From a virus (lineage: Duplodnaviria > Caudoviricetes): DNA of 59,303 nucleotides. The stretch spans positions 1 through 59,303 of the IMG/VR virus record IMGVR_UViG_3300005573_000105; one strand, 5' to 3'. The first letter of the stretch is position 1; each line of letters starts with the position of its first letter. Under the pieces are notes generated by a model. It had not been told where the DNA came from. It saw nothing but the letters and a program-made list of their open reading frames with translations, and did no database searches. This document shows, in pieces, positions 15,636-35,250 of this stretch. A program made the position numbers and the translations under genes.

Positions 15636-16655
15636 CTACAACAAGAACTCCTGTAGAATGTCCCAATAGCGCGCAAACTTTGGATTACGCTCGCATTCAC
15701 CCTTCGGGTCATATAACCACTTCTGCAACTCAGGCCAGAACTTCTGCTCTAAGTAGAAATAGCTTATCAGCACATTTGTTATACCGAGAGACGTCAACAC
15801 TGGAAGACCCCACGGACAAACAGCTGTGGAAATAACGAAGAACATCTTTATCTTATCTAATCGAGGAGCGCCTTGCCTGGCGCTCAGGGTACCACACAGC
15901 GTCGCATTCTTCTTGTAAGCATTCACCCCGATAGATAGATCACACACCTCCAGGAGATGTTTACAGTTGAGGTAGCAGCGGATCATTGTCAACTCTACCG
16001 CGCGAAGCTTCCACTTCATCAGCATGTCCACATTGATCCCACGCTCTGTGATATGCTTCTCCCACACGTCCCGCTTCAGCTTCGGGTCGTCCAAAGCAAT
16101 GTAGTTGTTGTTTCGGACCTTCTTGGTTCGAAGTTGGTATGGCTTTCCTTGAATGTAGATACACCCAGTTTTGCCGGAGGCTATTTGCCAAGTTGCGGAA
16201 TCCGCGCTGAAGAAAGGATACGTCCGCATCGAATGTGGCGAGGTATCACCAAAGGCATGAAACTTCGCCACAGGATAACCAGCCGAATCGGTCACATGAT
16301 TCCACATCAGATTATGCCACACTAGGTTCTCCGCTGGTGAGACGAGGGAGGTTCCCGACAAACCGATGTAGTCTGTCTCATCCAACATCATGTCCAACCA
16401 CTTGACGTTCTCTCTAGCGTGGAAGACGGGCATAACATCGATGCCTCGCTTCCTCATACGTAGAAAATTGTTCCAACCGGCTGCAGCCGCAGCCTCTGGG
16501 CTCTCAGGAGCAATCACGTCTAGGTTAACGGCGTGATAGATATCAGCTTTGTTGGCCAGAAGAAAGTCACCGTAAGCGGTGATGTCAATGGCGACGCCTT
16601 TTGTGTGCGCGCTATAAGCTCCCGAATCAAGGACTAGGTCTATTACAGGCTTCAT
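15636..16655 (-). CDS. dpdA: DpdA-type DNA-guanine transglycosylase (7-deazaguanine insertion)
   Basis: VLDSGAYSAHTKG, NLDVI, MPVFH, YIGLSG, KFHAFG, PFFSADSATW; adjacent to folE in a que gene-containing operon. Confidence 0.85.
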   Translation of the reverse strand: MKPVIDLVLDSGAYSAHTKGVAIDITAYGDFLLANKADIYHAVNLDVIAPESPEAAAAAGWNNFLRMRKRGIDVMPVFHARENVKWLDMMLDETDYIGLSGTSLVSPAENLVWHNLMWNHVTDSAGYPVAKFHAFGDTSPHSMRTYPFFSADSATWQIASGKTGCIYIQGKPYQLRTKKVRNNNYIALDDPKLKRDVWEKHITERGINVDMLMKWKLRAVELTMIRCYLNCKHLLEVCDLSIGVNAYKKNATLCGTLSARQGAPRLDKIKMFFVISTAVCPWGLPVLTSLGITNVLISYFYLEQKFWPELQKWLYDPKGECERNPKFARYWDILQEFLL

Positions 16656-25025: not shown

Positions 25026-25096
25026 CTCGCTTTCTGGCCCAGCAGGGAACTAAGATCGCCAACCATCTTGGTATATTACAGCATGCTCATCTATAA
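24983..25096 (+). other. Candidate -1 frameshift site (C CCT TTA) and portal extension frame
   Basis: In-frame X XXY YYZ heptamer at 24983-24989; -1 frame open to TAA at 25094-25096 (SLTAEPSLEKILTRFLAQQGTKIANHLGILQHAHL). Confidence 0.5.
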
Positions 25097-25631
25097 GATC
25101 ACCAATACGATCAACGGCAAGATCTACATCGGTCAGACGTCTAAGTCTGTGGAACAGCGCTGGCGCGAACACTGTCTGGATGCAAGTCGGAAAGGCCCTG
25201 CTCGCTCGGCTATCCACGCAGCAATTCGTAAGTATGGTCCAGATAAGTTCTCTATTCAGGAAGTTACTTCCTGTGCTACACAAGAGGAGCTTAACCTGGC
25301 CGAAGTGCACTACATCAAAGAATTGCAAGCCAATTGGGCTTACTTCGGGTACAACCTGGCGGAGGGGGGTTATAGACCCGGCCACTCAGAAGCCACTAGA
25401 AAACGCATGTCGGCCTCCCAGAAGTTGGTTAAGCACAAACCTCACACAGAGACAACCAAAGCTCGTATGTCTGCTGCTCACAAAGGGATTATCTTTACTG
25501 AGGAGCATAAAGCAAAGCTATCCGCGGCTCGCAAGGGAAGGACGTTCCAGCCATTATCCGCTGAAACCAAAGCCAAGCTCTCCTTGGCTAATAAAGGGCG
25601 GAAACTCGTGCGGAGATCTAATGCCACTTAG
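25083..25631 (+). CDS. GIY-YIG homing endonuclease with NUMOD3 repeats
   Basis: LIYKITNTINGKIYIGQT, RWREH, GYNL; HSEATRKRMS/HTETTKARMS/TEEHKAKLS/SAETKAKLS repeats; preceded by TGGTATATT. Confidence 0.92.
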   Translation: MLIYKITNTINGKIYIGQTSKSVEQRWREHCLDASRKGPARSAIHAAIRKYGPDKFSIQEVTSCATQEELNLAEVHYIKELQANWAYFGYNLAEGGYRPGHSEATRKRMSASQKLVKHKPHTETTKARMSAAHKGIIFTEEHKAKLSAARKGRTFQPLSAETKAKLSLANKGRKLVRRSNAT

Positions 25632-27333: not shown

Positions 27334-28944
27334 ATGCAGTTGATACATACTGGGAGTCGATTTGAAGTCATCTGTAGCTTCGGTGAATCTGAAATCCCGA
27401 AGAAAGCTGGGTTCCGCTGGGACCAGCGGAAGAAGCGATGGTTCACAGGGAACGCCATCTTGGCCATGCAGTTTATCCAGTTTGCTGATTTTCTAGCACA
27501 CGACATCTTGGCTGCCCATCAAGCCGCGATCGACTCATCCCGAGCACAGGATTCGGATATCTTCATCCCAACTCCCGATGGTCTTAGTTTTCTCCCCTTT
27601 CAGAAGGGTGGCGTGGCCTATTCTGTACCAAGAGAGCACACCTTGAATGGGGATGAGCCTGGGCTGGGTAAGACGATTCAGGCTATCGGGCATATCAATA
27701 AAGAGGAACACATCAAGCGCGTTGCGGTCTGTACCACGGCCAGTCTCAAAATTAACTGGCAACGGGAGATAGAGAAGTGGCAGTCTCGCAACATGAGCGT
27801 CGGCATTGCGGATCGCAAGGCGTGGCCTAACACAGATGTCATCATCTTCAACTATGAGAACGCTATCGAGGCCGCTGAGATGGGGTTGGACGACGTGAAT
27901 TGGGATCTGTTTGTTCTGGATGAGGCGCATTTCCTTAAGAATCCAGATACCAAGCGTACCCAAGCCCTCCTCGGCGTCTGGGATCGCGGGCGCTGCATCC
28001 TTCCACCGGTACGCGCCAAGCAGTACCTCTTCATGACAGGCACGCCAATCATGAACAAGCCGAAAGATCTCTGGCCTATCCTGCGAAAGGTGGACCCAAA
28101 GGGATTGGGCGCTTCCTACTCTGCTTTCACGGAACGCTACTGCAATGGACACATGACCCCCTTCGGGTATGATGCAGAGGGTGCATCCAACCTCTCGGAG
28201 TTACAGGACCGGCTGCGCTCCACTTGTATGGTTCGGAGGTTAAAGAAGGACGTACTACCCGAGCTACCCCTCAAGCGACGTCAGATCATCCCCATTCCGG
28301 CCAGTGTTGCACGTGTCGCTGCCCAGGCAGAACTTGAATTTTACAACAAGCATTCGGACGCTATCGAGCGCGCTAGAGAGCAGGCTGACATGTTCCAGGG
28401 TCGAGGAGATGAGGCGAGCTACAAGAAGGCTACCTCTGATCTGAATTCCCACATGAAGCTGCTCTTTGAGAGCATGAGTTCGTTGCGAAAGGCTACAGGG
28501 TTGGCGAAGGTGCCGTTTGCGAAGACCTTCATTGAGCAAATCCTGCTGGAGTCTGAGAAGTTGGTGGTCTTCGCCCACCACAACGAAGTTCTTGATCTGC
28601 TATTTGCTAAGTTTTCTGGGATCTCTGTGATGCATCGAGGAGAGATGTCCAACGTTGATAAGCAGCGGTCGGTAGACGTCTTTCAGGAGAATCCAAAGTG
28701 CCGATTGTTTTTCGGGTCAATCACCGCTGCTGTAGGCTATACCGTGACAGCTGCCTCGAGAGAGTTGTTTGTAGAACTAGACTGGCGTGCATCGGTTGTT
28801 AAACAAGCAGAAGATCGTTGCGCTCGTATCGGTCAACAGTTTTCTGTTTTGGTACAGCATCTCATCTTTGACAGCTCGCTTGATGCTCTTCAAGTCAAGA
28901 CAATTGTTAGGAAGTTAGAGATAGAGGAACAGGCACTTGGCTAA
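27334..28944 (+). CDS. SNF2-family helicase (SMARCAL1/HARP-like)
   Basis: GDEPGLGKT, VLDEAH, MTGTP, VRRLKKDVL, VVFAHH, QAEDRCARIGQ. Confidence 0.92.
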   Translation: MQLIHTGSRFEVICSFGESEIPKKAGFRWDQRKKRWFTGNAILAMQFIQFADFLAHDILAAHQAAIDSSRAQDSDIFIPTPDGLSFLPFQKGGVAYSVPREHTLNGDEPGLGKTIQAIGHINKEEHIKRVAVCTTASLKINWQREIEKWQSRNMSVGIADRKAWPNTDVIIFNYENAIEAAEMGLDDVNWDLFVLDEAHFLKNPDTKRTQALLGVWDRGRCILPPVRAKQYLFMTGTPIMNKPKDLWPILRKVDPKGLGASYSAFTERYCNGHMTPFGYDAEGASNLSELQDRLRSTCMVRRLKKDVLPELPLKRRQIIPIPASVARVAAQAELEFYNKHSDAIERAREQADMFQGRGDEASYKKATSDLNSHMKLLFESMSSLRKATGLAKVPFAKTFIEQILLESEKLVVFAHHNEVLDLLFAKFSGISVMHRGEMSNVDKQRSVDVFQENPKCRLFFGSITAAVGYTVTAASRELFVELDWRASVVKQAEDRCARIGQQFSVLVQHLIFDSSLDALQVKTIVRKLEIEEQALG

Positions 28945-28956
28945 ATTGGAGGATTT

Positions 28957-29205
28957 ATGAGTTATAAGGAGCAGTTTTGCTGCGATGTATGTTCTACTGA
29001 GAAGAAGGAAACCAATCACTGGTTTGTTGCGACCCTGGATGAACGCGACTACGGCCCGTTATCTGGCCCAACTCTCCATGTCGCTCCTTTCTGCGCAAGT
29101 GATGCAAAGCGTGCAGGGGTCGCGACCCTGTGCGGGGAGCAATGCATCGGGATCTATGTCCACCGACAACTAAAAAACTTAGTTGTGATGAGCGTGGCAA
29201 GTTAG
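28957..29205 (+). CDS. Small zinc-binding hypothetical protein
   Basis: GGAGG RBS; CDVC...LCGEQC. Confidence 0.65.
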   Translation: MSYKEQFCCDVCSTEKKETNHWFVATLDERDYGPLSGPTLHVAPFCASDAKRAGVATLCGEQCIGIYVHRQLKNLVVMSVAS

Positions 29206-30291
29206 ATAGGCCGAAAACCCACTAGGACTTCCTCCGCTATAGCCATACTGTAGTGTGTAGGAAAACGAGCTAGCAGAAATGATGGCTGTGGTCACCGAAG
29301 CCCCAGCAGCTACTTGCCCTGAGTAAGGATTACCTGAGGGGTATGTAGCATTGCATTCTAGAAAGTAATTAGTATCGGCCATGGGAGTAGGTAAGGTTTG
29401 CGTCGAGGCACAAGCTGCATCTCCGTTGTATGGAGCTCCACCAGAACATCCCGGGAAGTTGAACCACTCATCGGCTATAGTTGAGACACACTGCGCATTA
29501 CCACTTACGCCAATTCCTGTCATCTGGCCTGGCTTGGCGCAGGCTGTAGGGGCCGTTTGTAGCGCCGAGGCCGTTCCCGCATTCCCAGTGATGCTAACCC
29601 CAATGGTAGAAGCTAGATCGACGCTAGTTTGATTTGGGGATGCACTGTCTGATAGCACGAAATTGGAGGAGTAGTTAGTAGCATACCGCTGAGTAACTGG
29701 CGTTCCGTTAGATTTTAATGTTTGATAGAAAGGCACAGTGGCTGGTGGAAAGGGGGAGCACAGTGCATCTCCGTTGGCCCCGATTCCATAAGCATACTGA
29801 CCGCCCCCGGTACCGCAGTTAGTAGGTACGTTTTGTAGTGCGGTGGCGGTGGAGGCATTTCCTGTCAACGGGCCAACGAATGATGTTGCTGCCCAAGTAC
29901 CAGCCACGGTTCCGCCGCTGGCCCAGTCATCCGCGAACACGATGTCGGGTATGAAAATGTTTCCCTGCGCAGCTACCACCTCAAGCGCATAGTGCCCGTG
30001 AGATGTACAAAAGAAGTAGTTGCCGCCAGCGTCTGCTGTAAAAGGATTCGTGATTTCATTTCCAGAGCTCAAGGTAGGGCTGTTGTAAATGTTCACGGAG
30101 GCGGAGGCGGCTGGGCAATTAGTAGCAGTGGATCCGGAAGGGCAGAGATAAATCTTGGCATACGGAATAGGAACAATTACCCCGTTGCTGATGCTTTGCG
30201 CTACATCATCCGTACAAACCCCACCTGGAGCCTGAGCAAGCGCGAAGCCTGTCGTAAGGATGAGAGACAATCCTACTAGTTTATGCCACAT
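29179..30291 (-). CDS. Tail-fibre-like protein with N-terminal signal peptide
   Basis: MWHKLVGLSLILTTGFALA-Q; fibre motifs FVGPLTGNASTATAL and ITGNAGTASAL; 12 Cys. Confidence 0.7.
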   Translation of the reverse strand: MWHKLVGLSLILTTGFALAQAPGGVCTDDVAQSISNGVIVPIPYAKIYLCPSGSTATNCPAASASVNIYNSPTLSSGNEITNPFTADAGGNYFFCTSHGHYALEVVAAQGNIFIPDIVFADDWASGGTVAGTWAATSFVGPLTGNASTATALQNVPTNCGTGGGQYAYGIGANGDALCSPFPPATVPFYQTLKSNGTPVTQRYATNYSSNFVLSDSASPNQTSVDLASTIGVSITGNAGTASALQTAPTACAKPGQMTGIGVSGNAQCVSTIADEWFNFPGCSGGAPYNGDAACASTQTLPTPMADTNYFLECNATYPSGNPYSGQVAAGASVTTAIISASSFSYTLQYGYSGGSPSGFSAYLTCHAHHN

Positions 30292-30301
30292 TGGTAGCAC
30301 C

Positions 30302-30838
30302 TCAAACGTTGAAGATTTCTGGATGTGACTGGTATGTCGCTAGTACGTCAGAAGCTCGTTTGGGGTCGGTACTCCAGCGGCTGCCTACCCATTGGAACTT
30401 CCCGTCCGGGAAGGTAAAAAGATTAGTTACAGTACCGTCGCTGTCGCCCTCGACCTCTAGCCAATGTCCAGATACCTCACGAAGGTACTGCTCACCCGAT
30501 GTAGCCTGGAGAGCGCTTGCGTACAGAGGCAATCTCTTAAGTATTGCCATCCGTTCTACGAAGGCTTCCATGTAGGAGTTGAAGATAGGCCAGGTAGCAG
30601 GTTCCAGCTCAGCGACCCCTCGAATAATCTCATTAGTATGCATGGTGATGGTTCTACCCGTCCAACCATTCGGGGCTTTCATTCCGAAGACGTCGTTGGT
30701 TCGCTGACAGAGCTGGCTGTAACCCCAGGCGCTCTCAAGACAGGCCTCTGCGGCTGCGTAGGAGGGAAAGATGTGCCCAGACGCCTTCGCCTGGGCCACC
30801 ATCTGGACCGCAAACTGTTGCTGTAATTCGTGCAGCAT
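30302..30838 (-). CDS. Endolysin, glucosaminidase/FlgJ (GH73)-like
   Basis: AAAEACLESAWGYS, NDVFGMKA, WSTDP. Confidence 0.82.
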   Translation of the reverse strand: MLHELQQQFAVQMVAQAKASGHIFPSYAAAEACLESAWGYSQLCQRTNDVFGMKAPNGWTGRTITMHTNEIIRGVAELEPATWPIFNSYMEAFVERMAILKRLPLYASALQATSGEQYLREVSGHWLEVEGDSDGTVTNLFTFPDGKFQWVGSRWSTDPKRASDVLATYQSHPEIFNV

Positions 30839-30842
30839 GAGG

Positions 30843-30867
30843 AATGTCCTCGGTAGAGGACATTATA
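30843..30867 (-). promoter_or_regulatory. RBS-sequestering hairpin with overlapping TATAAT upstream of endolysin
   Basis: mRNA AAUGUCCUC-uacc-GAGGACAUU perfect 9-bp stem containing SD GAGGA; TATAAT at 30867-30862. Confidence 0.65.
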
Positions 30868-30872
30868 GGAGA

Positions 30873-31238
30873 TTACTTCTTTTTCTGCCCAACTTTCGGC
30901 TGCAGGACTGCGGGAGGTTTGCGCGTCCTCTCAAATGACATCGACTGAAAGTTGTAATTCCAATCATCCCCATAACCTCGCTCTCGCTTCACTTGGGCGA
31001 TGATTTCAAGGACGCGGCTCTTTGCTTGTGCTAACTGTTGCTGCACCGCCTGTGCAGAAGCTTGTATGAGCTGAAAGTCCTTGATGGCCAGCTTGATATC
31101 GGCATCTTGCAGTTGAGTCTTTAACGCCTCCTCACTGGTTGCAGAAGGCGGCACTGGTGATGTTGGGGCGGTTTGTCCGAAAGCGAGGACTGCTGCGAAC
31201 AACAGCGGTGCGCCCATAATTAGCGTACGCTTCTTCAT
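30873..31238 (-). CDS. Exported coiled-coil protein (possible spanin/lysis accessory)
   Basis: MKKRTLIMGAPLLFAAVLAFG-Q signal peptide; coiled coil; next to endolysin. Confidence 0.55.
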   Translation of the reverse strand: MKKRTLIMGAPLLFAAVLAFGQTAPTSPVPPSATSEEALKTQLQDADIKLAIKDFQLIQASAQAVQQQLAQAKSRVLEIIAQVKRERGYGDDWNYNFQSMSFERTRKPPAVLQPKVGQKKK

Positions 31239-31495
31239 TTCTTCCCTCCAAAGGGAGTAAGGATTCTGGATTTCTCTGCGGCGGGGTTCATACCAACAAT
31301 CTGTACCGGCAGAACCTTGAGACAGTCTGGATTTCCGCAATAAACAAGTGACGCAATCTGTCCTTGCGGGAACGAAGTGAACATCAGATTAAGCTTTACG
31401 GGTTTCTGCCCACAGTAGGGGCAACAAGGAAGGTTGTGTTCTGTAGCAGGAACGGTCCCCTCCTTCAAATCAGTTTTGATTTCAACTTCTTCCAT
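31235..31495 (-). CDS. Zinc-ribbon hypothetical protein
   Basis: CPYC...CGNPDC; GAGG RBS. Confidence 0.65.
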   Translation of the reverse strand: MEEVEIKTDLKEGTVPATEHNLPCCPYCGQKPVKLNLMFTSFPQGQIASLVYCGNPDCLKVLPVQIVGMNPAAEKSRILTPFGGKK

Positions 31496-31594
31496 GACAT
31501 TCCTCGAAAGAAAATGGGAAGGTATAAAAGAGAAAACTACCTCTCCAGGGGTTAAAGCTGCCTTGTGTTCTCGTCTCTGCGGACGGGAAGCTTG

Positions 31595-32119
31595 TTAGAT
31601 GTTTAGCGATGGCGGAAATCCACCTATCGCGACCGCGTTATTCCAAGTCTTCGTATATTGGCTTGCCGGGGAATGCCAGATGCTGCGCTTGAAATCTGGC
31701 ACAAGCGCCAATACCTTCGCTTCCGTCTCAGATGCAACCTGCAACTGATAGCTGACGGTTGACTCTTCCTCGGACGCGGTAGCTGTGGCCGGAGCTGAAG
31801 CAGGCTGCGGAGAATTGGCTGTGACCACGCCGATGACGGCCTCAACGCCGGCAAGGATGATGTTCGCAAGAGAAGCGTCAGCCGGTGGAATAGGAAGTGT
31901 GTTGAAGACAGTCTGAAAGTCTCCAATCAACTGTAGGACATTCTGCGCGGCAGTTCCCTGCTTCCAGTTTTGCAACGCCACCAAGGCAGCTTTGTAGGCT
32001 GTAATCGCTGCGATTCCATTGGGCGTGTTGCTCAGGTTTTCGAACGTGAGAAGCGAGACGATGGAAGGCTCAATTGCCGCCATCAAGGACGCTGCGGTTG
32101 CTGCTGCTTTTTGACACAT
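31595..32119 (-). CDS. Ala-rich amphipathic hypothetical protein starting Met-Cys
   Basis: AGGAGA RBS; lysis-region position. Confidence 0.65.
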   Translation of the reverse strand: MCQKAAATAASLMAAIEPSIVSLLTFENLSNTPNGIAAITAYKAALVALQNWKQGTAAQNVLQLIGDFQTVFNTLPIPPADASLANIILAGVEAVIGVVTANSPQPASAPATATASEEESTVSYQLQVASETEAKVLALVPDFKRSIWHSPASQYTKTWNNAVAIGGFPPSLNI

Positions 32120-34389: not shown

Positions 34390-35250
34390 TTATGGCGGAT
34401 AGATGGATACCTGCACCTCGTCTATATAGGCCGCAATGGTGCCACCATTGCTGTTGCCGTCCAGTTGGAACTGGAAATTGAACTTGTTCGTCCCGGAATC
34501 GGCCAGATCATCATAAGTATAAGACGCCCCGGCGTCCGCGAAAAGCAGCACGCCATCCACAGCGAAGTCAACATATTGGTAGGTCCCGGTGCTTCTGTCA
34601 AAAAGCACCAGTATTTGCAAATGGTGCCAGGTATTGGTGGCCGCGAGGTACGACGAAGCGTCAAAGTTGGTCTTCACCCAGGAGTTGCCCGCCGTGTTCC
34701 ATAGTCCCCAGCACTCTGTAGCCGGAGAGATGCAGTCCCCCGAATAGAACGAGGCGCGAACGCTTCCGAAGTACCTGTCGGTGCCGTCAAATAGGTCGGG
34801 GTCGTACTCGTATTGCTGGACAAGGCCGTTGTTTGAGGATGGGAAATAGATATAGAAGTCGGCCCGTATATACATCTGGCCAGTGAACTGGCAGCCCCCG
34901 GAAAGCGTCCCGCATCCCAGGCCAAGGTAAGTAAGAACATTGCAGTAATAGCCGGAGGTTCCGGTATGAGTGACCTCCATCGATGCGCCCGACAATGAAG
35001 GGCTTGCCACCCCCTGCGTCAGACCGTAGGCGTTCGTCACGCAACCCGATTGCGAGCCAGCGCGGCTGTCATCCACCTGTGACCATACATTGCTAGAATT
35101 CTGCAAATTGGAAAACGTTTCGGCCCCGGGCGGCACGGCGGGAAAGCCGGTCAGGAACGATGCATTTATCTGCGGCCCTTGCACCTGCAGGCTGCCGCAA
35201 AGCAGTGGCCAAAGCAGGAACAGCGGGAGCGCCAATGTTATCTTCTTCAT
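34390..35250 (-). CDS. Signal-peptide-bearing beta-sandwich (lectin/LamG/lyase-like) protein
   Basis: MKKITLALPLFLLWPLLCGSL-Q; NTWHHLQI, VDGV, YIDEV; 3 Cys pairs. Confidence 0.65.
   Translation of the reverse strand: MKKITLALPLFLLWPLLCGSLQVQGPQINASFLTGFPAVPPGAETFSNLQNSSNVWSQVDDSRAGSQSGCVTNAYGLTQGVASPSLSGASMEVTHTGTSGYYCNVLTYLGLGCGTLSGGCQFTGQMYIRADFYIYFPSSNNGLVQQYEYDPDLFDGTDRYFGSVRASFYSGDCISPATECWGLWNTAGNSWVKTNFDASSYLAATNTWHHLQILVLFDRSTGTYQYVDFAVDGVLLFADAGASYTYDDLADSGTNKFNFQFQLDGNSNGGTIAAYIDEVQVSIYPP

Follow-up and report, generated by a model that had tools for sequence, protein, structure and literature searches.

A candidate exported, cysteine-rich tail fibre with a tailspike-like N-terminal domain in an uncultured soil myovirus

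An uncultured soil phage (IMG/VR record IMGVR_UViG_3300005573_000105, analysed over its whole stretch of 59,303 nucleotides, hereafter the window) encodes a modular fibre-like protein of 370 aa that combines a signal-like N-terminal segment with six conserved pairs of cysteines, which is unusual for a tailed phage. The explanation we favour, although we rate its probability just short of even, is that the protein is an exported, disulfide-bonded receptor-binding fibre whose attachment to the particle has to await the holin step. The gene product would then be a pre-protein from which this virulent-looking myovirus, whose baseplate is Mu-like, obtains a short modular tail fibre. Residues 1–19 would act as a cleavable Sec signal (A-L-A/Q, the slash marking the predicted cut) directing the chain into the periplasm, where the six Cys pairs would be oxidised and the protein would fold, presumably as a trimer. 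The mature fibre would consist of an N-terminal docking domain similar to the head-binding domain of the P22 tailspike, two disulfide-loop shaft modules of the GNAxTAxAL/PTxC...C type, each of 43 aa, and a lectin-like tip with a CHxHH end that would bind a glycan of the host surface. Since the cytoplasm is where heads, tails and baseplates are made, such a fibre could dock only after the two compartments have merged, that is, once the holin and the endolysin have acted, or in the lysate. This would be similar to P22 tailspikes and T4 fibres, whose attachment can be the final step in vitro, on particles otherwise complete.

The earlier note had described a separate fibre-like gene at this place, and a real open reading frame of 370 codons does occupy it, on the minus strand, which the note had left out (table 1). 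The start codon is an ATG at 30291, and the GAGG motif 8 nt before it shares bases with the stop codon of the endolysin gene. The virus record is rated 97% complete by CheckV and contains a myovirus gene set (sheath, tube-region, tape-measure and baseplate genes, the baseplate being Mu-like) together with the phage's own replication genes. No integrase or resolvase was matched in the window, and the phage looks virulent, without indications of a temperate lifestyle. Among cultured phages, the nearest baseplate J proteins are BcepMu-like and less than 40% identical, and a search for the host retrieved only distant Mu-like prophages (baseplate J 49–56% identical) in MAGs of Binataceae and ‘Proteobacteria’, matches that are insufficient for naming a host.

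Table 1. Positions of the fibre gene, its parts and neighbouring features in the window.
Feature	Positions	Strand	Basis or remark
Fibre pre-protein CDS, 370 aa	29179..30291	minus	stop codon 29179–29181
C-terminal beta-sandwich tip, residues 272–370 (C282, C294, C313, C365)	29182..29478	minus	ends CHAHHN
Shaft module 2, residues 233–270 (GNAGTASAL + PTAC...C, C251/C268)	29482..29595	minus	module HMM i-E 2.7e-14
Shaft module 1, residues 138–181 (GNASTATAL + PTNC...C, C159/C178)	29749..29880	minus	module HMM i-E 8.4e-20
N-terminal beta-sandwich, residues 25–120, four invariant Cys (26, 50, 59, 95)	29932..30219	minus	AF2 and fold searches
Sec/SPase-I-type signal-like segment, residues 1–19	30235..30291	minus	putative cleavage
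GAGG Shine–Dalgarno-like motif	30300..30303	minus	read directly from the sequence
Glucosaminidase-type endolysin	30302..30838	minus	PF01832 at 1e-13 and PHROG endolysin families
121-aa ORF, signal/TM-like N-terminus	30873..31238	minus	helical, coiled-coil-looking rest, judged by eye
86-aa zinc-ribbon ORF (CPxC...CGNPxC)	31235..31495	minus	no Pfam or PHROG family
1507-aa fibre/spike, signal-like N-terminus, pectate-lyase-like domain	35253..39776	minus	
gpI/Mu gp48-like tail protein, fibre-like C-terminal extension	39754..40989	minus	PHROG tail protein matches and synteny

The protein begins with MWHKLVGLSLILTTGFALA, followed beyond the predicted cut by QAPGG, and this segment has the build of a Sec signal, comprising an n-region with H and K, a hydrophobic core of 14 residues and A-L-A/Q; no lipobox Cys stands at position +1. 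In the alignment of homologues, A19, Q20, A21 and P22 are each conserved in at least 90%, while the sequence of the signal otherwise drifts and retains its pattern of K/R, hydrophobic core and AxA/Q, as is usual for signals but not for a specific interface. The signal peptide proposed in the earlier note, which had named its loss from homologues as a ground for refutation, is retained as a signal-like segment at all 51 related viral loci and is not a chance occurrence. A crude rule of our own making (positive n-region, hydrophobic core of 10–15 residues, small residues at −3/−1), which gives one false match in the window and misplaces the cleavage site in several homologues, is passed by 45 of the 51 proteins bearing the N-domain. 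The six misses comprise three proteins with a visible segment below the thresholds, two over-long gene calls with the segment in their interior, and one fragment. Only five of 103 window ORFs of at least 100 aa pass the same rule: the 370-aa gene, the 1507-aa fibre, a 286-aa ORF and the 121-aa ORF, all in the fibre/lysis region, and an ATPase, which is the false match. Signal-like starts are likewise found in other fibre-like ORFs of the phage and its relatives, and 78 of 123 further proteins with shaft or tip modules pass the rule. The first in-frame ATG, GTG or TTG past the hydrophobic core is codon 66, within the N-domain, so a signal-less full-length isoform is unlikely.

The second prominent feature is the cysteines, for which the count of 12 given in the earlier note is exact (residues 26, 50, 59, 95, 159, 178, 251, 268, 282, 294, 313 and 365) and which are conserved domain by domain. 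All 29 aligned homologues share C26, C50, C59 and C95, and conservation is at least 90% for C159 and C178. Of the 23 proteins with the same C-terminal domain, all have C282, C294 and C313, and 22 have C365. Cysteines make up 3.2% of the protein, compared with 0–1.7% of the portal, sheath, tape-measure and baseplate ORFs; however, the terminase reaches 3.4%, so Cys content alone proves nothing. It is the conserved secretion signal together with the six Cys pairs that suggests that the fibre probably folds outside the cytoplasm.

Our literature search, conducted largely without subscription journals, returned no report of a Sec-exported fibre in a tailed phage, and the two-compartment mechanism is thus without a precedent found by us. 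By the general view, the particles of tailed phages are completed within the cytoplasm, and to our knowledge the known tailed-phage fibres all assemble there. This general knowledge speaks for an explanation that we nevertheless consider improbable, namely that the protein is an ordinary cytoplasmic tail fibre whose hydrophobic N-terminus does not serve export. The N-terminus could instead be a trimerisation or baseplate-insertion helix (AF2 does draw residues 2–16 as a helix), or could be covered by a partner, for instance the zinc-ribbon protein, a cytoplasmic product whose gene stays next to the fibre gene at 50 of 51 loci. The cysteines would be either reduced or metal-binding, and the C-terminal CHxHH motif suggests metal binding; the conserved tail-module position described below is also in line with this explanation. 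Against it, the segment shows the full Sec pattern, with AxA/Q kept in at least 90% of homologues despite a drifting core, and the cysteines are conserved in even numbers per domain, while neither in the N-domain nor in the loops are they spaced as in a metal site. Furthermore, most proteins that contain these modules bear a signal, and the head-binding-like domain starts only about eight residues beyond the predicted cleavage site, with model residue 28 aligning with P22 residue 14.

The N-terminal domain is predicted with high confidence (AF2 block means of pLDDT 86–97 across residues 21–120), and its residues 28–120 match the head-binding domain of the P22/Sf6 tailspike (Foldseek, 1lkt, E 8.4e-4, prob 1.00; VIA Z 9.4–9.7, rmsd 2.1–2.7 Å, 84–89 residues). 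In a Foldseek-independent search, P22/Sf6 head-binding domains were the top four of 48,161 representatives, and only six chains reached a Z of at least 8. An Atlas structure search, which we treat as a lead only, added matches to PF09008-bearing clusters at TM 0.65–0.73. Exported proteins with generic sandwiches, transthyretin-like or of the CnaB/pilin kind, are matched by the same domain at Z 6–7.7, and unmatched models typically attain a best Z of 7–8. The predicted fold resembles that of the P22 gp9 N-terminal domain, with a modest margin over generic sandwiches (Z about 7.7). The label Ig-like given in the earlier note to the N-terminal segment, where NPFTADAGGNYFF occupies residues 82–94, is only loosely right: the domain is a beta-sandwich whose closest fold is the tailspike domain. 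As in the P22/Sf6 tailspike (PF09008), this domain is N-terminal in a modular protein with a swappable C-terminal part. Unlike that tailspike, the 370-aa protein has four invariant Cys and a preceding signal-like segment, gives no PF09008 sequence match, is only about 14% identical to it in structural alignments, and belongs to a myovirus with a Mu-like baseplate and not to a podovirus. Identity of homologues to the window protein averages 56.6% (47.6–62.7) over the N-domain and 33.6% over the remainder (47 of 50 homologues, three having been dropped for missing motifs or short segments). A conserved N-domain combined with swapped tips is a layout like that of receptor-binding proteins.

Both of the GNAxTAxAL plus PTxC...C modules described in the earlier note are present downstream of this domain, with the repeats at residues 144 (GNASTATAL) and 236 (GNAGTASAL) and the loops at residues 156–178 (PTNC...C) and 248–268 (PTAC...C). 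We take the GNAxTAxxL-type motif to be similar to the repeats of Stf/H fibres. The shaft is poorly modelled in the AF2 monomer (block means of pLDDT 51–84), and a Pfam search of six long proteins sharing the shaft module gave no family above threshold. The suggestion that the 1507-aa fibre contains the same loop type gained no support: an HMM built from 170 loop modules matches only the 370-aa gene in the window and gives no match to the 1507-aa ORF even at E ≤ 10. When the 370-aa protein was compared by BLASTP with the ORFs of 1507, 308 and 411 aa, no significant similarity emerged, the best E value for the 1507-aa ORF being 0.91.

The tip is modelled mostly at block means of pLDDT 86–94, with lower blocks of 60–77 within the domain. 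In VIA, residues 272–370 reach Z 7.2–8.4 over 83–90 residues against three groups of structures, namely H-type lectins (discoidin and Helix pomatia agglutinin, HPA), the C-terminal domains of tailspikes and the foot of the R-type pyocin fibre. In this range, no more than a common arrangement may be shared. The protein is predicted to have a beta-sandwich at its distal end, like these structures, but differs from them in the two conserved Cys pairs and the terminal CHxHH. The family of this tip numbers 23 proteins with the conserved Cys and the CHxHH motif, and the C-terminal ends of the 51 related proteins are of at least three types (six CHxHH, 18 ‘..IGY’ and 27 other). PF21882 (Gp53-like_C) was detected in seven of ten homologues tested, whose tips differ from that of the window protein, which itself has no PF21882 match in hmmscan. 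Some of the tip-sharing proteins consist of a signal and the tip domain alone (about 160–200 aa); with these small proteins as queries against viral contigs, 54 pattern matches were obtained and none was confirmed.

Relatives of the 370-aa protein numbered 51 in one search and 148 in another. The 51 related viral loci fall into 31, 25 and 13 groups at 99%, 90% and 70% identity, respectively, which corresponds to about 13–25 independent lineages. In 50 of the 51 loci, the fibre homologue directly follows a gpI-like gene and the 86-aa zinc-ribbon gene, frequently with a 4-nt overlap with the preceding gene, and in all 51 the gpI-like homologue, on the strand of the fibre gene, is the next recognised window homologue upstream. 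The placement after the endolysin reported in the earlier note is therefore true of the window but atypical of the family, and points to a local rearrangement: inserted genes separate the fibre gene from the gpI-like and zinc-ribbon genes, the endolysin and the 121-aa ORF (spanin-like, as a guess) lying between the zinc-ribbon and fibre genes. The same tail-fibre position, behind baseplate genes, disfavours the decoration protein that the earlier note had offered as an option. According to the alignment, the gpI-like gene may start at M23. The zinc-ribbon protein found only generic zinc-ribbon neighbours in the Atlas structure search, and a complex prediction that combined the gpI-like and zinc-ribbon proteins with the N-domain (residues 20–135) scored 0.00 in two runs, which speaks neither for nor against binding.

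In the window itself, the gene is the last one of a leftward operon, beside the lysis genes, i.e. at a typical site of a moron, and hmmscan found neither a Pfam-A family, PF09008 included (none at E ≤ 10), nor a PHROG family (none at E ≤ 1) in its product. Both observations would fit a host-derived secreted protein acquired as a moron and unrelated to the mechanics of infection, yet we regard this origin as highly improbable given the 51 viral loci with a conserved structural position. A scan of 28800–31600 for promoters and terminators gave counts no higher than shuffled sequences, and no relative emerged from 185,579 species, one genome each, within the limits of the two peptide patterns used (68 pattern matches, none confirmed). 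Nor is the fold that of an ordinary host secreted protein, a possibility the earlier note had raised, as both confidently modelled domains match phage tailspike or tail-fibre domains. Cultured relatives were likewise not encountered in a tblastn search of 50,697 phage records. The best match among PDB sequences, auracyanin at E 0.009, was taken as chance.

The main alternative, which we consider less likely than the favoured explanation, is that the protein is exported but does not belong to the virion, being a free lectin-tipped fibre in the periplasm or on the cell surface. There, by masking or binding the receptor glycan, the protein could exclude superinfection or keep progeny off debris, or it could be an adhesin akin to the surface-displayed mosaic adhesive trimer (MAT) fibres of Bdellovibrio bacteriovorus, which are also the closest known analogue of an exported fibre as we envisage it. 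The signal and the cysteines count for both explanations equally. MATs are described (PMC10769870) as exported proteins that resemble phage tail fibres: a signal peptide and a conserved, beta-rich N-domain of about 130 aa precede a trimeric fibre, which ends in swapped or diversified tips containing disulfides. The 370-aa protein shares the order of signal, beta-rich N-domain, fibre and variable tip, the two architectures being compared by description only. MATs are cell-encoded and displayed on the cell's own surface, far longer (constructs and residue numbers run to about 850–1,150 residues), and reported to have an N-domain with no PDB homologue (PMC10769870), whereas the 370-aa protein is encoded behind baseplate genes by a 97%-complete virus record and by 51 viral contigs.

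Other observations are also in line with a non-virion protein. As noted above, many further module-sharing proteins look exported, some of them being just a signal and a tip, and the N-domain resembles the sandwiches of exported adhesins and pilins. In addition, the lom gene of lambda is a signal-bearing non-virion gene amid tail-fibre genes (PMC12309495). The 370-aa protein differs from Lom and Bor in having no beta-barrel or lipobox, its model consisting of two sandwich domains and a shaft, and in a docking-type N-domain encoded by a phage with no temperate signs. Bor-type morons bear signals and are located in tail or lysis regions. The fixed place of the gene behind the baseplate genes, often overlapping the preceding gene, nevertheless argues for a virion component, as does the N-domain, whose fold is matched best by the domains with which tailspikes dock to virions. 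This domain is also the most conserved part of the protein, as expected of a part fitting a conserved baseplate; a role in lysogenic conversion is unlikely in a phage with no integrase or resolvase found; and the tip is unlike the 1507-aa fibre, which a receptor mask should mimic. Were the protein nonetheless outside the virion, it would represent a new kind of phage-encoded exported lectin fibre with a testable role in exclusion or release.

Among fibres of tailed phages, the Mu S and P2 H types, from myoviruses with Mu-like or P2-like baseplates, likewise follow J-like and I-like baseplate genes and have a conserved N-terminus and a variable C-terminus. These fibres are not known to have a signal peptide or Cys loops and are followed by a chaperone gene, whereas the fibre family studied here is preceded by a small zinc-ribbon gene and gives no family match. 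Receptor binding, a Sec signal and stabilisation by disulfides are known together from pIII of filamentous phages, which assemble by extrusion at the membrane, unlike the cytoplasm-assembled particle of the tailed phage considered here. If a family of tail fibres does cross the inner membrane first, as our preferred reading holds, the picture of assembly in the cytoplasm alone would change: lysis would time the last assembly step, the host's oxidative folding machinery would be usable by phage receptor-binding proteins, and phage fitness would depend on Sec and Dsb functions of the host. Phage fibres would also be linked to exported bacterial fibre adhesins such as the MATs, and the family would be a source of small, disulfide-stabilised, tip-swappable glycan binders. 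Either way, pipelines that discard signal-bearing ORFs as non-structural would miss the receptor-binding proteins of this phage group.

The putatively exported fibre may not stand alone. We entertain, as less likely than not, the broader possibility that the soil-myovirus lineage sends its entire host-recognition apparatus (the short lectin fibre, the large depolymerase-like fibres and further Cys-rich proteins) through Sec for oxidative folding in the periplasm, its particles, built in the cytoplasm, being completed only after the holin step. Assembly of such a tailed phage would be divided between two compartments, and its fibres would be hardened by disulfides. The gpI-like protein of 411 aa has a fibre-like C-terminal part of its own and no signal, so the particle may not depend on exported fibres. 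The 1507-aa ORF is the phage's other exported-looking fibre, and the large depolymerase-like fibres share a conserved ‘AQTQ(I/V)N’ as their putative mature start.

The 370-aa fibre-like protein (residues numbered from Met1 of the pre-protein) proved to be as the earlier note had described it, an ORF with a signal-like start, two repeats each followed by a loop and exactly 12 cysteines; only the strand (minus) had been left out. A GAGG lies 8 nt 5' of the ATG, overlapping the stop codon of the endolysin gene ahead as read from the sequence, and the N-terminus is MWHKLVGLSLILTTGFALA/QAPGG, with the slash marking the putative cleavage site. The N-domain (residues ~25–120, with NPFTADAGGNYFF at residues 82–94) is followed by a shaft bearing two GNAxTAxAL motifs (at 144 and 236), each with a subsequent PTxC...C loop (156–178 and 248–268), and by a tip; A, G, S and T are abundant and charged residues few (5 K+R, 16 D+E). 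By sequence, the protein belongs to neither PF09008 nor PF21882 nor any other Pfam or PHROG family (hmmscan, Pfam and PHROG searches).

A word-indexed search retrieved 51 homologues and an exhaustive one 148 proteins at E ≤ 0.001, 20 of them at E ≤ 1e-30, and no relative from cultured phages was found by tblastn in 50,697 phage records. A scan of IMG/VR yielded 51 loci with relatives (31, 25 and 13 groups at 99%, 90% and 70% identity, respectively). Because in 50 of these the fibre gene directly follows homologues of the 411-aa gpI-like gene and the 86-aa zinc-ribbon gene, in this order and with 4-nt overlaps at several of the junctions, the usual location of the family is where tail operons of the Mu/P2 type have their tail-fibre slot, and the protein would be alike to the Mu S and P2 H tail fibres in function as well as in this position; that it is a host-derived moron seems very improbable. 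The exception is locus L026, in which the fibre gene is preceded by a homologue of the window ORF 31595–32119. In the window, about 8 kb separate the gpI-like from the zinc-ribbon gene, a stretch in which, among others, small membrane-protein-like ORFs, the signal-bearing 286-aa ORF and the 1507-aa fibre are encoded, and the zinc-ribbon gene is in turn separated from the fibre gene by the 121-aa ORF and the endolysin gene. The placement after the endolysin pointed out earlier thus holds for the window but is not a trait of the family. In another related locus, L030, a lysozyme-looking ORF (by eye) is placed after the fibre gene. The zinc-ribbon protein carries a motif, CPxC...CGNPxC, invariant in 17/17 aligned sequences; it has no family match in Pfam or PHROG, and an Atlas search returned generic zinc-ribbon neighbours only.

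The N-terminus shows in all 51 loci the same pattern of K/R, a hydrophobic core and AxA/Q(T)AP.G.C, and each row in an alignment of 29 homologues starts with a signal-like segment; conservation is 90% or higher at A19, Q20, A21 and P22. A crude home-made signal rule demanded K/R but no D/E in the n-region, a core of 10–14 residues averaging 1.7 or more on the Kyte–Doolittle scale, and small residues at −3 and −1. It was passed by five of the 103 window ORFs of at least 100 aa; four of them, namely the fibre-like protein, the 1507-aa fibre and the 286-aa and 121-aa ORFs, share one fibre/lysis stretch, and the fifth is an evident false hit in an ATPase. Both counts bear out the earlier view that the signal is no chance feature, and its conservation in homologues is likewise confirmed. 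An earlier variant of the rule was passed by 45 of 51 proteins with the N-domain motif, the six misses comprising three with a visible segment below the threshold, two whose genes were called too long, so that the segment is internal, and one N-terminal fragment. In divergent members the core sequence varies freely and the pattern and the AxA/Q site are retained, as is typical of the evolution of signal peptides. Since the first in-frame ATG/GTG/TTG past the core is codon 66, within the N-domain, a signal-less full-length isoform would be unlikely. We regard it as improbable that the protein is an ordinary cytoplasmic fibre, with a hydrophobic N-terminus that does not serve export. Export is a prediction here, and no tailed phage with Sec-exported fibres was found in the accessible full-text literature. 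The only signal-bearing phage receptor-binding protein that we are able to name is pIII of filamentous phages, whose assembly mode differs from that of tailed phages.

An AlphaFold2 model of the protein (70-row alignment, mean pLDDT 79.3) has a helix at residues 2–16, block means of 86–97 in the N-domain (residues 21–120), a poorly modelled shaft (block means 51–84) and a tip (~272–370) with most blocks at 86–94 and some at 60–77. The likeness to tail-fibre or head-binding domains envisaged earlier was recovered by Foldseek, with the P22 tailspike head-binding domain as the top PDB match (1lkt, E 8.4e-4, prob 1.00) and the tail-fibre N-domains of Sf6, Pan3 and Pam1 next. VIA-align gave Z 9.4–9.7 and an rmsd of 2.1–2.7 Å over 84–89 residues for model residues 28–120, and P22/Sf6 head-binding domains were the top four chains in a Foldseek-independent search of 48,161 representatives, in which only six chains reached Z ≥ 8. 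An independent Atlas structure search, a lead only, placed PF09008-bearing tailspike clusters at TM 0.65–0.73; hmmscan against Pfam found no PF09008 match in the protein itself. The N-domain also matches sandwiches of the transthyretin-like, CnaB and pilin types at Z 6–7.7, so the margin for the P22-type match is modest. As modelled, the N-terminal end appears to resemble the P22 head-binding domain in fold, and the C-terminal end lectin-like fibre tips: the tip was matched by H-type lectins (discoidin, Helix pomatia), tailspike C-terminal domains (AP22, LKA1, phi297) and the foot of the R1/R2 pyocin fibre, all at Z 7.2–8.4, a range that may reflect a shared arrangement only.

In the alignment of 29 homologues, the N-domain has 22 invariant columns, including those of its four cysteines (C26, C50, C59 and C95, each in 29/29), and the C-terminal half is unalignable across the family; mean identity to the protein falls from 56.6% in the N-domain to 33.6% in the remainder (n = 47). 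The 51 N-domain proteins have at least three C-terminal end types (6 CHxHH, 18 '..IGY' and 27 other), and PF21882 (Gp53-like tail-fibre tip) occurs in 7 of 10 homologues tested. Receptor-binding proteins usually show this combination of a conserved end for attachment and an exchanged one for binding. An HMM of the shaft module, made from 170 distinct modules out of 109 homologous or module-sharing proteins (consensus FTGALTGNASTATALAANPTDCSAGQFATGIAANGNATCAQVT), matched this protein alone in the window, twice (i-E 8.4e-20 and 2.7e-14). Relaxing the cut-off to E ≤ 10 still gave no hit in the 1507-aa fibre, and BLASTP between the two gave a best E of 0.91, which leaves of the proposed common loop type only a short PTxC...C resemblance; the earlier interpretation is thus upheld for the fibre-like nature and a signal beyond chance, but not for this link. 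The signal rule was passed by 78 of 123 further proteins with shaft or tip modules but without the N-domain motif, and more of them look signal-bearing by eye, so these modules belong mainly to exported-looking proteins. One protein, P0055 (4834 aa), carries the GNAxTA/PTxC...C module 14 times; no Pfam family reached the threshold in it. Five small proteins (P0056, P0080, P0134, P0131 and P0103; 160–199 aa) consist of a signal/TM-like N-terminus and the CHxHH tip only; no genomic origin was found for them by cluster look-up or in a viral-contig scan (54 pattern matches, none confirmed).

Outside the N-domain, the loop cysteines C159 and C178 are at least 90% conserved, and in the C-terminal domain family of 23 proteins C282, C294 and C313 occur in 23/23 and C365 in 22/23. 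This domain is always protein-terminal and in 21/23 finishes in C-[H/E]-x-H-H-x (CHAHHN, residues 365–370, in the protein studied here); the CHxHH-type motif may form a metal site on a trimer axis. The pairing of the cysteines is one that we infer. The Cys content of 3.2% compares with 0–1.7% in the portal, sheath, tape-measure and baseplate ORFs, but the terminase ORF reaches 3.4%, so Cys content alone is weak evidence.

Every molecule would thus be made with a Sec-type signal and have domains built round conserved Cys pairs, and the genome context and N-domain fold predict a fibre meant for baseplate docking. The two are reconciled if the protein is exported into the periplasm, its signal is cut between A19 and Q20, it folds oxidatively, and it then docks onto cytoplasmically built particles after holin and endolysin join the compartments, or in the lysate; we put this forward tentatively, as having somewhat less than an even chance of being right. 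Late attachment is known for P22 tailspikes, in which the matching domain occurs, and for T4 long fibres: both are the last parts to join and can be supplied in vitro to particles otherwise finished. Holin lesions are large enough for late fibre attachment. Other fibre-like ORFs of the window phage and its relatives also start with signal-like segments; this holds for all large ones of the clade, and the mature start AQTQ(I/V)(N/D)P..Q(I/V)KW is common to many of these. In three related loci (L003, L021 and L035) the large signal-bearing fibre gene is flanked by the J-like and the gpI-like baseplate gene, which favours a structural over an accessory role. The main alternative, less likely in our view, is a protein exported but never on the virion, i.e. 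a receptor mask, anti-readsorption factor or adhesin. A real precedent for it exists in Bdellovibrio, whose MAT fibres are described (PMC10769870) as trimeric, displayed on the cell surface, with a signal peptide followed by a beta-rich N-domain of ~130 aa that is conserved, and with swapped disulfide-containing tips; to that extent our protein equals them in layout. For docking after export and for all its rivals, particles without exported fibres may not be blind, because the gpI-like protein brings a signal-less fibre-like part of its own at the C-terminus. In Binataceae and 'Proteobacteria' MAGs, distant Mu-like prophages also have ORFs of 245–755 aa that begin with a signal- or lipobox-like segment and lie in or next to the baseplate region.

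Features of the window and of related loci, with coordinates
Feature	Coordinates	Strand and position	Remarks
Fibre-like protein CDS	window 29179-30291	minus	ORF from ATG at 30291, 370 residues
CHAHHN tip end	window 29182-29199	minus	
Glucosaminidase endolysin	window 30302-30838	minus, upstream of fibre-like protein	PF01832 at 1e-13
121-aa ORF	window 30873-31238	minus, upstream, in front of endolysin	signal/TM-like start; helical, coiled-coil-like by eye; possibly spanin-like
86-aa zinc-ribbon ORF	window 31235-31495	minus, upstream of fibre-like protein	
286-aa ORF	window 34390-35250	minus	signal-like N-terminus, 7 Cys
1507-aa fibre	window 35253-39776	minus	large signal-like fibre ORF
Large signal-like fibre ORFs	L002 14928-17825; L003 5760-8348; L021 5686-8472; L035 6095-8407; L047 10979-12346; L051 10905-14681		
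Mu-like prophage ORFs	L053 2305-4521; L054 2262-4529; L055 4703-5440; L056 3657-5906		signal- or lipobox-like
GIY-YIG-type nuclease (by eye)	window 25068-25631	plus, after portal gene	
Copy of the nuclease ORF	L044 6453-7136	between W-like and J-like baseplate genes	37% identical
Queuine tRNA-ribosyltransferase-like gene	window 15636-16655	minus	PHROG 887 at 1e-42

The window, which is the entire 59,303-base virus record, is rated 97% complete by CheckV. Terminase- and portal-sized ORFs, identified only via homologous ORFs in L026, are on the plus strand; a long leftward structural operon comprises sheath, tape-measure, baseplate hub, W-like, J-like and gpI-like genes, and the genes downstream of the fibre gene are on the plus strand, convergent. 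Among cultured phages, the nearest baseplate J proteins are those of the BcepMu-like kind (<40% identity). The replication set includes a DnaB-like helicase, DNA polymerase, clamp-like factor, UvsX-like recombinase, SbcCD and SSB. Since no tyrosine or serine recombinase domain was found in the window, the phage looks virulent. The GIY-YIG-type ORF looks like a mobile homing endonuclease, and the queuine tRNA-ribosyltransferase-like gene may serve 7-deazaguanine DNA modification.
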